Source of the DNA: a virus
Virus record (IMG/VR): IMGVR_UViG_3300032157_000002
Coordinates: 17,327 to 81,326 of that record
DNA: 64,000 nt
Strand: one strand, 5' to 3'
Part shown: piece by piece, positions 8,130-13,377 of the stretch
Numbering within the stretch: position 1 is the stretch's first letter
How the letters are laid out: every line of letters begins with the position of its first letter
Notes under the pieces: generated by a model
What the model was told of the DNA's origin: nothing
The model's database searches: none
What the model saw: the letters and a program-made list of their open reading frames with translations, nothing else
Translations under genes and position numbers: made by a program

Positions 8130-9824
8130 TTAGCTGGTGACGCGCGCGCCAACCCGGTCGGCGATGGCGTCGATCTTGCGGACCAGATCACCGCTGCCAT
8201 TGGGCGCACCCTTGACGGCGAACTCCTCCAGCAGCTTCTTGATCTTTGGCAGGTGCTTCTCGGACAGCTCATAGGCCGCTTCCGCATAGTCCTTGGCGCT
8301 GTTCGCCCGGTTGCGGATCACGTTCAGGTCTTCGCCCAGATCGCCGCTGTAGCTGCTCTGCGGATCGCCGAGCAGCCGCTTGGCTGCCAGACCAAAGGCT
8401 TCCTCCGGCGAGGGCTCCGGCTTCTTCTGCTGAAGCAGCTTGGAGTGATCGACCATCTGATAGGCCGCCACCAACAGATCATCTTCGACGATCTGGGTTT
8501 CCTCGCGGAAGATCATGCCGAGCTTGGCGCGCGACACGATCTCAGCGATGATCGCCGGGATATAGCCGTTCTCCTCGACCAGCTTGCCGAGCGCGGTCAG
8601 CGGGACAGACTTGTCCAGCAGATTGCCGGCATAGAGGCGAACCAGACGTTCGGCTGCTTCGGCATCCGGCTTGGTGACATGGATGAGCGCATCCAGCCGG
8701 CCCGGCCGCAGCATCGCCTCGTTGATCAGCTCGATATGGTTGGTGGTCAGAACGGTGATGATCTCACCATCCTTGGACACCGCGCCGTCGATCGTGTTCA
8801 GCAGATCGTTGGTCTTGTTGTCGCGGGACTTGACTGCGACCCGCTCCACGTCTTCGGCGAACACCACCGAAGGCTGATAGAGCTTGGCCAGCTCCAGCGC
8901 CCGATCCAGGCCCTCGACCTTATCGACCATGATAAAGGTCCAGCCATTGTCCTGGGCGATCTTGGCGGTCACCAGTGCGGTGAGCGTCTTGCCGGTGCCG
9001 TAGGGGCCATAGAGCAGCGCACCGCGCTTGAGCGAAACACCATGCTTGCGGGCGATGGCGGTCTTGCGGATCGGGGTCCAGACGGTGTGCTCCATCAGGC
9101 TGTAGTTCACCTGGGTGAGCACGAGACCGTCTTCAGAGACCTTGGACAGGTCGATGAAGCTCGGCGCAACCGAGGCCTCGACCTTGCCATCCGAGCCTAC
9201 GGGCAAGCGCATCGCCTTGCCCTTGTAGATCGAATGTTCCCGCAGATAGTCCCGCGTCTCCTCGATCAGCGCCATGATGATCTTGCGCTCATGATGGCGC
9301 ACCTTGGCGCTGACATGGAAGGACAAGAACGAGCCTTCCTTGGCCTTGGGATTGCGGGCAAAGCCGGTGATCAGCTCCGCCTTGGTGTCCTGGAGCTTGA
9401 ACTTGCCGACCGGGACTTCCACGTAATCTTTCGGCTTGGGGCCGGTGCGCACCATCACCATTTCCGGCTGAATGTCGCCGAACATGGTCTTGATGGTCTG
9501 CGGGTTCACCCAGCCATAGCGGCGCTCCATCACCTTGACGAAGGCATGGGCGGCGTCATGGGGCATGCCCGGCAGATACTCGCTCACCTCGAAGAGCTGG
9601 TCTTCCTTGGCCTTGAAGTCGAGCAGGGTCTGGATGCCCTCTTCGACGGTCATCGGGTCGGGCTGGCCAGGGAGCTTGATCTCCGTGGCGGTCTCGTCCC
9701 ATTTGACGCCGAGTTCCTTGGCCTGGGCGATCTCGCCGCTGCGCAGCTTCTGGCGCGTTGACTTGATCATCATGCCCATCACGTCAGCCAGGGCCTGGGC
9801 TTGTTCAGTTGCGCTGTCACTCAT
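8130..9824 (-). CDS. AAA+ ATPase (classic clade)
   Basis: GPYGTGKT Walker A, VFAEDVE Walker B, TTNH...AMLRPGRLD second region of homology. Confidence 0.9.
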   Translation of the reverse strand: MSDSATEQAQALADVMGMMIKSTRQKLRSGEIAQAKELGVKWDETATEIKLPGQPDPMTVEEGIQTLLDFKAKEDQLFEVSEYLPGMPHDAAHAFVKVMERRYGWVNPQTIKTMFGDIQPEMVMVRTGPKPKDYVEVPVGKFKLQDTKAELITGFARNPKAKEGSFLSFHVSAKVRHHERKIIMALIEETRDYLREHSIYKGKAMRLPVGSDGKVEASVAPSFIDLSKVSEDGLVLTQVNYSLMEHTVWTPIRKTAIARKHGVSLKRGALLYGPYGTGKTLTALVTAKIAQDNGWTFIMVDKVEGLDRALELAKLYQPSVVFAEDVERVAVKSRDNKTNDLLNTIDGAVSKDGEIITVLTTNHIELINEAMLRPGRLDALIHVTKPDAEAAERLVRLYAGNLLDKSVPLTALGKLVEENGYIPAIIAEIVSRAKLGMIFREETQIVEDDLLVAAYQMVDHSKLLQQKKPEPSPEEAFGLAAKRLLGDPQSSYSGDLGEDLNVIRNRANSAKDYAEAAYELSEKHLPKIKKLLEEFAVKGAPNGSGDLVRKIDAIADRVGARVTS

Positions 9825-10329: not shown

Positions 10330-10590
10330 CTAGTCGTCCACATCCACCCGCACGGCAATCGCATCCGGATCATCCCGCGCCCGCTGGGGCTGGGTGGCAT
10401 CGATCCGCACCGTTGAGCGCGACTGGCCCGGCTTGTTCACCGTCAGCTCGATCTTGTAGATGTCGAACGGGTCTCCGCTGTCCACTTCATCATTATAGCG
10501 ATCAGCGGCATCGCTGGAACTATCAGAGGAATGCGCGGTAGAGCCATCAGCGTCCACCGCTACCCAGAATGTTGCTGTTACCTTTTCCAT
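10330..10590 (-). CDS. hypothetical protein
   Basis: AAGGAGA RBS before MEKVTAT. Confidence 0.7.
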   Translation of the reverse strand: MEKVTATFWVAVDADGSTAHSSDSSSDAADRYNDEVDSGDPFDIYKIELTVNKPGQSRSTVRIDATQPQRARDDPDAIAVRVDVDD

Positions 10591-10601
10591 GGCTATCTCC
10601 T

Positions 10602-10823
10602 TTATGATCGCAGGCGAGGGGCACAAACATTCTTACCGGCCTTGCCGCAGCGTGCACAATACCAGCTTTCCGGCTTGGCCTGCTCCAGACGGAGCCTTTC
10701 CGCCTCGGCCTCTGCCGCGCGCACCAGATCATCGATCTCTGGTGGTGTCGGCAAGGTTTCCACCTCGCCCTCCTCCAGCGCGCCGGTCGGATCGGTTTTC
10801 ACTTTGCGTTGCTTCTGGTTCAT
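10602..10823 (-). CDS. Pup/UBact-like small protein with Cys-rich tail
   Basis: MNQKQRKVKTDPTG...EIDDLVRAAE, CARC...C tail; paralog of next gene. Confidence 0.6.
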   Translation of the reverse strand: MNQKQRKVKTDPTGALEEGEVETLPTPPEIDDLVRAAEAEAERLRLEQAKPESWYCARCGKAGKNVCAPRLRS

Positions 10824-10826
10824 GGC

Positions 10827-11111
10827 TTATCTCCTAAGACTTGCCTTAAGGACAAAATGACCGATCGGGCAGCCTTCCACGCCGCAATGGCAGATATAGC
10901 CGGCATCCCAGAGGAGCTTGGCGCGCTCTTGAATCCGAGGATCGCCGCTGGGCTTTCGTGCTGCCTTCTCCGCTGCCTTGCGCTGCTCTTCAGCGGCTTG
11001 CTCGACGGCCTTTACCAGATCATCGATCGGCGGCGGTGCGGGAAGCACATCAGCCTCTTCGCCCTGTTCTCCGGTCGGATTGACTTTGACACGACGTTGT
11101 TTTTGCTCCAT
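10827..11111 (-). CDS. Pup/UBact-like small protein with Cys/His tail
   Basis: MEQKQRRVKVNPTG...PIDDLVKAVE, CHCGVEGCPIGH tail; directly after ARC-like ATPase. Confidence 0.6.
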   Translation of the reverse strand: MEQKQRRVKVNPTGEQGEEADVLPAPPPIDDLVKAVEQAAEEQRKAAEKAARKPSGDPRIQERAKLLWDAGYICHCGVEGCPIGHFVLKASLRR

Positions 11112-11174
11112 AATTGTCTCCTTGGCTAAGAGGAGGGGGGATACAAAATGTACCCCTCCCTCTGTCTGGTGAGA

Positions 11175-12545
11175 TTACTCTGCCGCGTGACTGATCCGGC
11201 CGTTCTCCTCCTGAATCCGTTGCACCGCATTCAGGATATCGGCCTCAGTCAGGCCGGTGCGTTTCCGGCTCGCCAAATCCCGTGCCAAAGCAAAGGATTT
11301 TGCCTGCTCTGCAATCGCCGCCAGCATGGCGCCAGAGACGACAGAGCGCAGCGGTTTGGTGGAGCCGGCGATCAAGGTCTTGTCCGAATACACCGTCTCA
11401 ATCGTCAGCGCGGTCAGCTTGTCTGCACGGGTCTGCTTGGCAATCGGTGCCTTAGCCAGATGGATGGGGAAAATCTCCAGCGCATCGTCTGGCGTCGGCC
11501 GGGCCACCTCAATCTTGCGATCCATCCGCCCATCGCGGGTGATGGCGGGATCGAGCTGTTCCGGCTTATTGGTCGCCAGCATCACGATGGCAGAGGATTC
11601 CTCCAGGCCATCCATTTCCGCCAGGAAGGTGGGAACCACCGTGCTGGACATGAAATTGCTGGAGCCGCGTCCATTGCCGCGCGCGGTAAGCAGGGCTTCG
11701 GCTTCGTCGATGAAGATGACAGCCGGGTTGCCGGTCTTCTGCTTATGGGTGCGTGCCGCCTTGAACAGTTCGCGGATTTTGCGCTCGGTTTCGCCGACAT
11801 AGGCATCGAGCACTTCCGGCCCCTTGATCGAGAAGAAGGCACCATTGTCGCCCTCGGCGCGGATTGCGGTTGCCGAGGCCTTGCCGAGCAGGGTCTTGCC
11901 ATTGCCCGGAGGCCCGAACAGCAAGATGCCGGCCGGGAAGCCCTTGCCATAGAAGCGGAAGATGTCCGGATACATGGCTGGCATTACGATGGCTTCCTGC
12001 AAGGCTTGTTTGGCCGCGCTTTGGCCACCGATTTCCTCCCAGCCGACATTGACGGCGGAGGTGAGGGTGAAGCGTTGGCCTTTTTCCTGCGGCATCACCG
12101 CATAGATGATCATATTGCCGGCTGAGAGCACGACTTGATCGCCGACTTTGGGCCGATTATTGCCGTTGATGACCGCTCGATTCTGGCCATCGATGATCAC
12201 CTCGCTCATGTGGTCATTGACCAGCGCTTTGACGACGCCGATGCCGCCGATCTGCGGCTCTTTGGCTAGTCGGATGATGGCCTTGGTTTGATTGTTGATC
12301 AGCACCGGAGCCCCGATGGTGAGGTTCAGATTGGCGGGTTGATCGACTTCGATGATTTGGTTATCGGCCACCAGCGTGACGCTTCCACCTTCCTCATTGA
12401 TGGCAACGACGGTGGCATGGGCCAGCGGCAAAGCGGTTAATTTGCGCAAGAGGGCATCTTGTTCCAGCAGACGTTCTTTCATTTGTTCGAGAATGTCAGC
12501 GGGGGCAGCCCCCTTGGTCTGGCCATTTTTTGCCAGTATCGTCAT
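11175..12545 (-). CDS. ARC/Mpa-like proteasomal AAA+ ATPase
   Basis: N-terminal coiled coil, two OB-like beta segments, GPPGNGKT, SIKGPEVLDAYVGETERKIRELF, IFIDEAE, TVVPTFLAEMDG, LDPAITRDGRMD. Confidence 0.88.
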   Translation of the reverse strand: MTILAKNGQTKGAAPADILEQMKERLLEQDALLRKLTALPLAHATVVAINEEGGSVTLVADNQIIEVDQPANLNLTIGAPVLINNQTKAIIRLAKEPQIGGIGVVKALVNDHMSEVIIDGQNRAVINGNNRPKVGDQVVLSAGNMIIYAVMPQEKGQRFTLTSAVNVGWEEIGGQSAAKQALQEAIVMPAMYPDIFRFYGKGFPAGILLFGPPGNGKTLLGKASATAIRAEGDNGAFFSIKGPEVLDAYVGETERKIRELFKAARTHKQKTGNPAVIFIDEAEALLTARGNGRGSSNFMSSTVVPTFLAEMDGLEESSAIVMLATNKPEQLDPAITRDGRMDRKIEVARPTPDDALEIFPIHLAKAPIAKQTRADKLTALTIETVYSDKTLIAGSTKPLRSVVSGAMLAAIAEQAKSFALARDLASRKRTGLTEADILNAVQRIQEENGRISHAAE

Positions 12546-12612: not shown

Positions 12613-13377
12613 TTAACGCGGCGGCGGGCGCCGGGTGCTGACATCGAGCCAATTATGGCTGCGCTCGGCGGGTGTGCGGCCAATGCTGGTCGGTGCCGGG
12701 CTCACCTGCGGGCAGGTTGCCGGATCATCCTTGAAGGCCTCGGCATAGCCGTCAATGTCCTCCAGGAAGGTGAAGTCCACCACCCGCACATGGAATTTTG
12801 GCTCGACCGTCGCGGTGAGACCTTCATCCGATAGCGGGAGCCTTACGCAATCGCGCCGGGTTTCGTTGGGCTTGACGACCCAATCCAGGGCAATGTGCGA
12901 TTCATTGAGATTGGGGCTGGGCAGGACGATGTTGCTGGAGCGATCCGGCAGATAGCCGCGAAAGTTCAGCCTGACCTTGCCGATCGTGCGCCCGGTCTCG
13001 TTGCGGTAAGAAACCTGGACATGGCCGGGGGTGTTGCACCCTTCTGTCATGGCAGCGTTGGCCACGATCCGGCTGAGATAAGCAGGCTTGGCCTCTGCTC
13101 TAGCGCGGTTCTCATTGACAGAACGCTGGTAAGCTTCATGATCGAGCCGCTGACTACGCTCCCGCTCACCTTCGCTGCTGGCCCACCAGACAACGCCGAT
13201 GAGAACGCTGATGAAGAGCATCACCCAGAACAGCGCGGTGCCGAGGCCTGGGCCGGTGTCATAGGCTCTCAGCGCTTCGCGTCGCCACTCCTCATTTGAC
13301 CGGCGCAACTCACCGTTTTCGCGACTGAGGCGGGCGTTTTCGCGCATGACCCGATCGACCGTGGAATTTTCGTCCAT
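12613..13377 (-). CDS. membrane-anchored protein
   Basis: Coiled coil, one TM helix, beta-rich C-terminus. Confidence 0.7.
   Translation of the reverse strand: MDENSTVDRVMRENARLSRENGELRRSNEEWRREALRAYDTGPGLGTALFWVMLFISVLIGVVWWASSEGERERSQRLDHEAYQRSVNENRARAEAKPAYLSRIVANAAMTEGCNTPGHVQVSYRNETGRTIGKVRLNFRGYLPDRSSNIVLPSPNLNESHIALDWVVKPNETRRDCVRLPLSDEGLTATVEPKFHVRVVDFTFLEDIDGYAEAFKDDPATCPQVSPAPTSIGRTPAERSHNWLDVSTRRPPPR

Follow-up and report, generated by a model that had tools for sequence, protein, structure and literature searches.

A phage AAA+ ATPase of the ARC/Mpa type followed by two Cys-tailed small proteins with a remotely Pup/UBact-like N-terminal module

The window considered here, a 64,000-nt stretch of DNA, lies inside the IMG/VR virus record IMGVR_UViG_3300032157_000002 (102,270 bp, estimated to be 91% complete). 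At positions 10602-12545 of the window the minus strand carries three co-oriented, tightly packed genes, which encode an AAA+ ATPase resembling the mycobacterial proteasomal ATPase Mpa (ARC) and two small proteins, denoted A and B. We describe this module and its relatives, and weigh the possibility that it is an offshoot of the Pup and UBact protein-tagging systems.

The ATPase gene and the two small genes

The features of the locus are as follows.

11175..12545, minus strand: ARC/Mpa-like AAA+ ATPase, 456 aa (open reading frame (ORF); TIGR03689; AlphaFold2 (AF2); Foldseek; tree)
12435..12500, minus strand: N-terminal coiled-coil helix, ATPase residues 16-37 (secondary structure of the AF2 model)
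12096..12425, minus strand: two tandem OB-type beta-barrels, ATPase residues 41-93 and 99-150 (AF2; structural alignment with Mpa)
11178..12068, minus strand: AAA module, ATPase residues ~160-456 (PF00004, E 5.7e-34; invariant motif positions)
11133..11162, minus strand: GC-rich RNA hairpin, past the ATPase stop and ahead of the ribosome-binding site (RBS) of small protein A (fold -26.7 kcal/mol, z -2.87)
10827..11111, minus strand: small protein A, 94 aa (ORF with its own RBS; family profile, 85 bits)
10977-11111, minus strand: N-module of small protein A, residues 1-45 (Pup/UBact-like)
10854-10892, minus strand: Cys tail of small protein A, C74-H-C76-G-x3-C81-x-I-G-H-F (motif conserved in 14 relatives)
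10602..10823, minus strand: small protein B, 73 aa (ORF with its own RBS; family profile, 57.6 bits)
10689-10823, minus strand: N-module of small protein B (same module as in A)
10617-10658, minus strand: Cys tail of small protein B, C56-x2-C59-G-x6-C67-x-P (type found in relatives)

The ATPase has one AAA domain in Pfam. Its top NCBIfam model is TIGR03689, 'proteasome ATPase', aligned over residues 11-451 (E 6.5e-79), and the score of 266 bits lies below the curated equivalog cut-off of 504.75. A single-sequence AF2 prediction was unusable (predicted local distance difference test (pLDDT) 38.7), and we used instead a model built from an alignment of 42 rows (pLDDT 88), which features a helix at residues 16-37, beta-barrels at 41-93 and 99-150 and, from about residue 160 onwards, the AAA module. 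When this model was compared with the PDB by Foldseek, the first 30 matches were all Mpa of M. tuberculosis, with about 435-490 aligned columns (7px9, 7pxc, 7pxd, 5kwa, 5kzf and 7ljf among the matched structures), and the Rpt subunits ranked lower. The ATPase has the Walker A motif GPPGNGKT, the Walker B motif IDEAE, the pore loop YVG and the arginine fingers R337 and R340; none of these elements varies in the 42-sequence family alignment, nor does sensor 1. The protein contains no cysteine. It ends in ...GRISHAAE, lacking the GQYL/HbYX motif for docking onto the proteasome. Sequence and model together support an Mpa/ARC-like architecture over the full length, and in this the coiled-coil/OB/AAA+ protein without a docking tail that was proposed in the initial annotation is borne out. 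PADLOC yields for the ATPase only generic AAA matches (IetA, TRIP13), and therefore its membership in a defence system is unsupported.

Small protein A begins MEQKQRRVKVNPTG and small protein B begins MNQKQRKVKTDPTG. They share an N-terminal module (the N-module) of about 45 residues, some 60% identical between the two, in which a basic start, M-E/N-Q-K-Q-R-x-V-K-x-x-P-T-G, is followed by an acidic spacer and a putative helix, L-P-x-P-P-(E)-I-D-D-L-V-K/R-A-x-E, with PP(I/EI)DDLV common to both. The tails cannot be aligned except at the cysteines. That of A is C74-H-C76-G-x3-C81-P-I-G-H-F, the protein ending in ...GHFVLKASLRR; that of B is C56-x2-C59-G-x6-C67-A-P, and the end of the protein is ...VCAPRLRS. 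Hence two tandem paralogs with an M(E/N)QKQR start do directly follow the ATPase, and Cys/His clusters do stand in place of GGE/GGQ, as had been noticed: neither protein has the C-terminal GGQ/GGE at which Pup is ligated or the R-[ST]-G-[EQ] end of UBact.

No named family was found for the small proteins. Searches of Pfam, PHROGs, NCBIfam and PADLOC gave nothing significant, as did a PDB search with the profile of the small-protein family, which returned no Pup chain. A scan of viral contigs using A alone had no match. In the ESM Atlas, A has no feature match, and its model has a low confidence (pLDDT 0.53), which is consistent with disorder. The tails of A and B do not have the two C-x2-C knuckles (four ligands) of a zinc ribbon or rubredoxin. 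Zinc-ribbon models applied to the family produced only insignificant matches (Zn_ribbon_3 at E 0.014 in one of 12 members, rubredoxin at E ~8), and a profile of the tail type seen in A had nothing significant in the PDB. The idea of a metal site shared between tail and ATPase was dropped, as the latter has no cysteine, and the N4-type AAA protein encoded next door was dropped as a partner of the tails for the same reason.

Good Shine-Dalgarno sequences precede A, B and the gene after B, and the start of B is three bases past the stop codon of A. The folding prediction has the Shine-Dalgarno sequence of gene A, GGAGA, base-paired with a CCUCU that lies immediately 3' of the hairpin at 11133-11162. 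This hairpin could set the ratio of ATPase to small-protein expression.

Relation to UBact and Pup

Pup, a disordered protein, becomes helical on binding the coiled coil of Mpa, which is docked onto the 20S proteasome by GQYL (PMC8223512). The Mpa-binding helix motif of Pup is D-D-L-L-D-E-I-D-x-V-L-E, and the small-protein family was compared with it by hhalign. A genome scan with the ATPase alignment produced 80 loci, from which 42 Pup and 16 UBact genes were extracted as comparators, examples being checked against PF05639 (Pup) and PF20513 (UBact). Two profiles were constructed on the side of the small proteins: that of the phage-type N-module (43 sequences) and that of a subfamily with a terminal Cys-x-Cys (10 sequences).

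In hhalign the phage-type N-module matches UBact with 36% (P 3.9e-4) across 37 collinear columns, a score that was not reached by any of 60 column permutations; the reversed profile scores 7.8, and the reversed UBact profile gives about 0.2% where the true one gives 36-48%. When 20,401 six-frame ORFs were searched with this profile by hmmsearch, the only matches at E <= 0.1 outside the contexts of the family itself were three UBact genes (E 8e-4 to 4e-3), scoring 18-22 bits versus a maximum of 11.1 for 6,000 shuffles. They come from metagenome-assembled genomes (MAGs) labelled Verrucomicrobia, Poribacteria and Chitinophaga pinensis, the ATPase of the latter being of the Verrucomicrobia type in the tree. 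The likeness covers the first 36-45 residues, collinear in the phage proteins and UBact: Q-K-Q-R-P, a spacer rich in P, G and acidic residues, and P-x-x-[DE]-[DE]-L-L-K. Unlike UBact, which is found in Verrucomicrobiota, Nitrospirota, Nitrospinota, Poribacteria and Armatimonadota, the phage proteins have no C-terminal half R-M-R-K-V-D-P...Y-R-Q-R-T-G-E/Q and no ligase.

The Cys-x-Cys subfamily leads to Pup. After the family members, its profile retrieves only Pup genes, more than 25 of them, the best at E 0.003. In hhalign the subfamily matches Pup with 84% (E 7e-6, score 31 versus 24 for the reversed profile and 18 for the best permutation). The median score of this profile is 12 bits on real Pups and 6.7 on reversed ones, while 0.17% of 6,300 shuffles reach 10 bits (maximum 12.9). 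The phage-type and Cys-x-Cys profiles match each other with 96% (E 7e-9), and the combined family scores 79% with Pup (reversed 36%) and 48% with UBact (reversed 0.15%); in the same test Pup and UBact match with only 2%. The putative Pup link of A and B is transitive, passing through the Cys-x-Cys sister subfamily. Kinship of the small-protein family to Pup and UBact by common descent, real but remote, seems to us rather probable, an estimate that leans on the phylogeny and the genomic context.

The phylogeny was assessed by a quick IQ-TREE run with 102 ATPases, rooted at the midpoint, in which some branches are long. Three clades are seen. The Pup-associated clade contains 50 ATPases (support of 98 in the Shimodaira-Hasegawa-like approximate likelihood ratio test, SH-aLRT) and the UBact-associated clade contains 25 (SH-aLRT 100). 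The third clade (26 ATPases, SH-aLRT 100) includes the window protein and all ATPases with Cys-tail neighbours, seven of the 'Cys-tail' rows being labelled from the ATPase alone. The Pup and UBact clades are joined at 96, opposite the third clade, and so the window ATPase falls outside both. Each clade pairs with its own type of small gene: Pup, UBact or Cys-tail.

The C-termini follow the same division. Those of the Pup clade are G-Q/H/T-Y-L, with 34 of 43 ending in G-x-Y-L or a near variant such as GTFL or GQYV; the exceptions are rows from Corynebacterium, Bifidobacterium, Actinomycetaceae and Dietzia, which to our knowledge have no 20S proteasome. ATPases of the UBact clade end in ..II/VI. 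The third clade has neither kind of end, with the sole exception of P0037 (locus L102), which keeps GQYL and yet is followed by a Cys-tail gene and a gene of the DUF1360 family, considered below.

Compared with Pup-Mpa of Actinobacteria (5kzf, 7px9), the phage module has the same coiled coil, two OB barrels and one AAA ring, and in both cases the gene of a small disordered protein lies near that of the ATPase. The phage N-terminus is basic and Q-rich, and an acidic amphipathic helix of the D-D-L-L-D-E-I-D type is recognizable in the wider family. The differences are a separate ATPase clade with about half the TIGR03689 cut-off score, the absence of PafA/Dop, 20S and GQYL, Cys motifs instead of GGQ/GGE, and the lack of a Pfam match to Pup. 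Moreover, the phage small gene abuts the ATPase gene, whereas pup follows dop.

Conservation of the module, tail types and neighbours

A profile for the small proteins was built from 12 relatives. Among 1.8 billion representative proteins it finds 43 clusters at E < 1e-3, all unnamed or 'hypothetical' and none a Pup. In about 20 distinct contigs a third-clade ATPase gene is immediately followed by a gene of this family. These contexts are the window, L001, L003, L006, L007, L010, L012, L014, L015, L017, L018, L020, L097-L101, L102, L105/L108, L107, L111, L112, L113, L119 and L171; L002 was placed neither among the carriers nor among the exceptions. The GC content of the carriers ranges from 33% to about 70%. 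They include contigs of jumbo phages, 150-275 kb in length, and MAG contigs labelled Saccharibacteria, Gammaproteobacteria and Rikenellaceae. The other genes around the pair vary between contexts. The arrangement is not due to chance, because the same pairing recurs in so many distinct contigs.

Two relatives deserve a separate description. In the Rikenellaceae-labelled contig (L020, 6722-6889), the small protein has a very Pup-like helix, V-D-I-D-D-V-I-L-E-I-D, no cysteine and the C-terminus P-E-E-E; judging by its sequence, it may be an intermediate form. In L102 (292-2631), the small Cys-tail gene overlaps the ATPase stop and is uncalled in the source annotation, where the DUF1360 gene that follows is apparently called on the wrong strand.

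While the N-module stays constant, the tails across the family are of four types.

Tail type 1: C-x-C-G-x3-C-x-I-G-P-F (P or H before F), as in small protein A
Tail type 2: C-x2-C-G-x6-C-x-P, as in small protein B; also in L006, L010, L100, P0139 and P0140
Tail type 3: Cys-x-Cys(-Trp) at the very C-terminus
Tail type 4: C-P-x-C-G-x3-C-P

The tail type covaries with a neighbouring gene. DUF1360, whose identity was confirmed by Pfam (PF07098), is a membrane protein with the motif C-x2-C-x(1-2)-H-W, usually C-P-Y-C-x-S-H-W, just before a transmembrane helix. All ten contexts with a DUF1360 gene also have a type 3 tail or a related short terminal Cys cluster, and none of the eight contexts without DUF1360 has a Cys-x-Cys or related terminal tail; these contexts are related by descent, and the count is not a probability. 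The same pairing is seen in four further distinct viral contexts (L105/L108, L107, L111 and L171, the motif being CPYCFSF in the last one). Of all the observations, this covariation points most strongly to the tail as the part by which a second protein is held. The phage considered here belongs to the other part of the family: PF07098 was not found in its record, and A and B have the two longer tail types. It shares with the Cys-x-Cys/DUF1360 cassettes the ATPase clade, the position of the small gene and a homologous N-module, and differs from them in having no DUF1360, two tandem paralogs, and longer three-Cys tails whose cysteine motifs are not at the extreme C-terminus.

Cys motifs also occur elsewhere near such ATPases. 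In two relatives the gene after the module begins with M-C-D-D-P-T-C-E-A-C (L010, 4973-5323) or M-C-E-K-C-D-E-L (L007, 4932-5315), resembling the motif fused to the ATPases of the Brevundimonas type, and no counterpart was seen in the window. The latter ATPases are variants (L004, 3662-5014; L005, 3650-4996; L103, 2057-3478, from Brevundimonas phage vB_BpoS-Polewnik) annotated as 'proteasome-associated ATPase'. They have no coiled coil or OB domains; instead, a disordered N-terminus with C-G-D-P-x-C-x2-C precedes the AAA module in the same chain, and the genes are not followed by a small Cys-tail gene. We considered these ATPases (L004, L005 and the Brevundimonas phage) as a 'Rosetta stone' fusion and dropped the link, as the order of the motif differs from that in the tails of the small proteins.

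No bacterial degradation tags of this kind are known besides Pup and UBact, both of which need a glutamine-synthetase-like ligase and a proteasome. The absence of PafA/Dop and 20S genes from the window had been noted before, and it extends to the entire 102,270-bp record, where neither Pup_ligase (PF03136) nor Proteasome (PF00227) was found. Pup_ligase was also not found in five other virus records carrying the module, two of them at least 98% complete, or in four MAGs with third-clade ATPases, and 20S genes were not found in the six virus records (this phage and the five related ones). In the positive control, Pup_ligase is present twice or more in five out of five Pup/UBact genomes. These results uphold the description of the system as ligase-free in each record that was examined.

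The virus record encodes a phage portal, a large terminase and virion proteins. The host is plausibly an alphaproteobacterium, because the portal is closest to those of phages of Microcystis, Rhizobium and Paracoccus. About 1.3 kb downstream of the module, at 8130-9824 on the minus strand, is a second AAA+ ATPase (564 aa, phrog_10440, E 1.4e-95) of a type occurring in N4-like and other phages. A gene of this type also adjoins the ARC-like gene in L006, L007, L012, L099 and L100, and therefore two different AAA+ proteins are kept together in this phage group. The upstream flank (12613-13377, minus strand) encodes a protein of 254 aa that has a single transmembrane segment and, at its N-terminus, a coiled coil. 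The downstream flank (10330-10590, minus strand) encodes a protein of about 86 aa starting with M-E-K-V-T-A-T-F-W, which has a homologue at the same place in L006.

Possible mode of action

We favour, at roughly even odds, the reading in which the module is a phage-borne, ligase-free and proteasome-free offshoot of the Pup/UBact-ARC systems, combining an Mpa-type unfoldase with Pup-like handles that carry Cys hooks. It builds on what was observed above: the architecture of the ATPase, its sister-clade phylogeny, the strict synteny, the remote homology of the N-module, the absence of ligase and proteasome, and the covariation of tail and neighbour. The 456-aa ATPase would be a hexameric Mpa-type unfoldase with a coiled coil, a double OB ring and an AAA ring with an intact YVG pore loop. 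Lacking a tail for docking onto a proteasome, and with no 20S encoded in the record, it would work alone, without a protease, as an unfoldase or extractor. A and B would be its cognate handles. Their disordered N-module, with the M-x-Q-K-Q-R start, the acidic spacer and the P-x-I-D-D-L-V-K-A-A-E helix, would engage the ATPase as Pup engages Mpa, the helix sitting on the coiled coil and the free N-terminus entering the pore; Pup is threaded into Mpa from its N-terminus. The three-Cys tails would replace the ligatable GGQ/TGE end and, with no enzyme involved, hook onto a partner protein, probably through a metal or through thiols, and the partner so held would be brought to the ATPase and then unfolded or extracted. 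We infer here the physical binding, the threading, the binding of metal and the identity of the target, which may be a host or a phage protein. A functional analogy, and no more than that, is provided by the adaptors SspB and ClpS of ClpXP/ClpAP and MecA of ClpC, one part of which docks onto the N-domain of the unfoldase while the other holds the cargo; they have no sequence or fold relation to A and B, are folded, are not threaded and serve protease complexes. No description of such a system was found in the literature on phages and Pup, UBact or Mpa, or in that on DUF1360.

Several observations weigh against this reading. As regards the N-module, only three of the 16 UBacts match it, the other 13 scoring at most 10.5 bits, and the reciprocal search with a UBact profile finds no family member. 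The direct hhalign match of the phage-type N-module to Pup is 31%, and the reversed Pup profile scores the same. The Pfam models of Pup and UBact have no match to 12 family members at E<=10, and PF05639 has none, at the same threshold, in six frames of the 102,270-bp record. The coiled-coil helix of the phage ATPase has only about 22 residues in the AF2 model, far fewer than the Pup-binding coiled coil of Mpa, which has about 50, and so short a helix may mean a binding mode unlike that of Pup and Mpa. Three cysteines per tail, plus one histidine in A, form an incomplete zinc site, and no partner gene was found for the two tail types of this phage. L019 and the viral relatives L106, L114 and L123 have no recognizable small gene after the ATPase. 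Unfolding alone, with no protease, does not necessarily destroy the target. Finally, the predicted complex of two copies of ATPase residues 1-156 with residues 1-52 of A scored 0.11, under the mark, and counts neither way.

In sum, as an observation, an ATPase followed by two Cys-tailed paralogs at 10602-12545, the initial annotation is confirmed in every descriptive element. Its Pup/UBact likeness stands as a remote UBact match above the controls and not as a direct match to Pup. Its interpretation, that of ligase-free adaptors docking by a Pup-like helix and selecting host targets by a Zn-binding tail, is supported in part: the Mpa/ARC architecture, the remote likeness and the lack of a ligase hold, whereas the docking of the helix on the coiled coil, zinc binding by the tails, the choice of host targets and an anti-defence role are conjectural.

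Alternatively, the small proteins could be substrates or regulators rather than handles: short-lived effectors or inhibitors whose Cys tail folds around metal into a tiny domain acting on a host or phage protein. The N-module would then be an inbuilt degron, through which the phage ATPase could remove or recycle the effector or control its timing. This explanation draws on the same synteny and the same conservation of the N-module as the handle reading, and it agrees with the predicted disorder. A set of effectors would account for the tandem paralogs and their differing tails, and neither tail type of this phage has a target gene linked to it. However, unfolding a largely disordered protein of 70-90 residues without a protease achieves little. 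Moreover, the perfect covariation of Cys-x-Cys tails and DUF1360 suggests that the tail holds a second protein, and this second protein is therefore the likelier object of the pulling force. Overall, we regard the substrate explanation as rather unlikely.

It is improbable, in our view, that there is no functional link at all, A and B being small metal-binding early phage proteins that happen to stand beside a stand-alone AAA+ remodeller. The likeness to Pup and UBact would then reflect convergence of acidic amphipathic helices and low-complexity N-termini, as might be suggested by the reversed Pup profile scoring nearly as well with the phage-type module, by the Pfam models and the reciprocal UBact search returning nothing, and by the complex prediction remaining under the mark, itself no verdict. 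Against coincidence, the pair is kept in genomes with GC content of 33-70%, in jumbo phages, in bacteria of the candidate phyla radiation and in other MAGs while the other neighbours change, and the adjoining ATPase belongs to the clade that is sister to precisely the ATPases working with Pup and UBact. Besides, Pup and UBact genes are the sole profile matches outside the family contexts among about 20,000 ORFs, with shuffles scoring far lower.

A true conjugation with unfamiliar chemistry would have the tail Cys attached covalently, by a disulfide, thioester or thioether, either spontaneously or by a non-PafA enzyme encoded elsewhere. The tail does sit exactly where Pup and UBact have their ligatable GGQ/TGE end, Cys-x-Cys forms the extreme C-terminus of many relatives, and the partner DUF1360 carries C-x2-C at the membrane interface. 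We nevertheless consider conjugation quite improbable: no candidate enzyme is conserved beside the module, the cysteines of this phage are internal to the tail rather than C-terminal, and stable disulfides are unlikely in a reducing cytoplasm. Finally, precursors of ribosomally synthesized and post-translationally modified peptides, with a conserved leader and a modified, released Cys-rich core, would resemble A and B in the leader-like N-terminus, the variable Cys-rich C-terminus and the tandem paralogs, but are very improbable here, as no radical-SAM enzyme, cyclodehydratase, lanthipeptide synthetase, peptidase or exporter is conserved nearby, the unfoldase is the only constant partner, and the type 1 proteins have linkers of up to 80 residues.

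To return to the reading of the module as an unfoldase with Pup-like handles, the new elements are the phage variant without DUF1360, with two tandem paralogs and larger cysteine motifs, the three-clade ATPase tree, and the control-tested link to UBact. A bolder form of it, which we put forward tentatively and with considerable doubt, is that the module represents a third branch besides Pup and UBact, widespread in phages, in which a Cys hook couples the tag to the target and diversified hooks aim the unfoldase. If so, the tails, of at least four types and often two per genome, would be hooks chosen for host or phage proteins, and the module would be a programmable, protease-free device for protein inactivation, used in host takeover, counter-defence or extraction of membrane proteins. 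The recognition half of pupylation would be reusable with a different coupling chemistry, and phages would possess an unfoldase system that is compact and can be re-targeted. With its roughly 45 residues, the N-module could be carried over to other proteins as a degron or handle that addresses an orthogonal unfoldase, and the role of stand-alone ARC-type ATPases in organisms without a proteasome would become directly testable.

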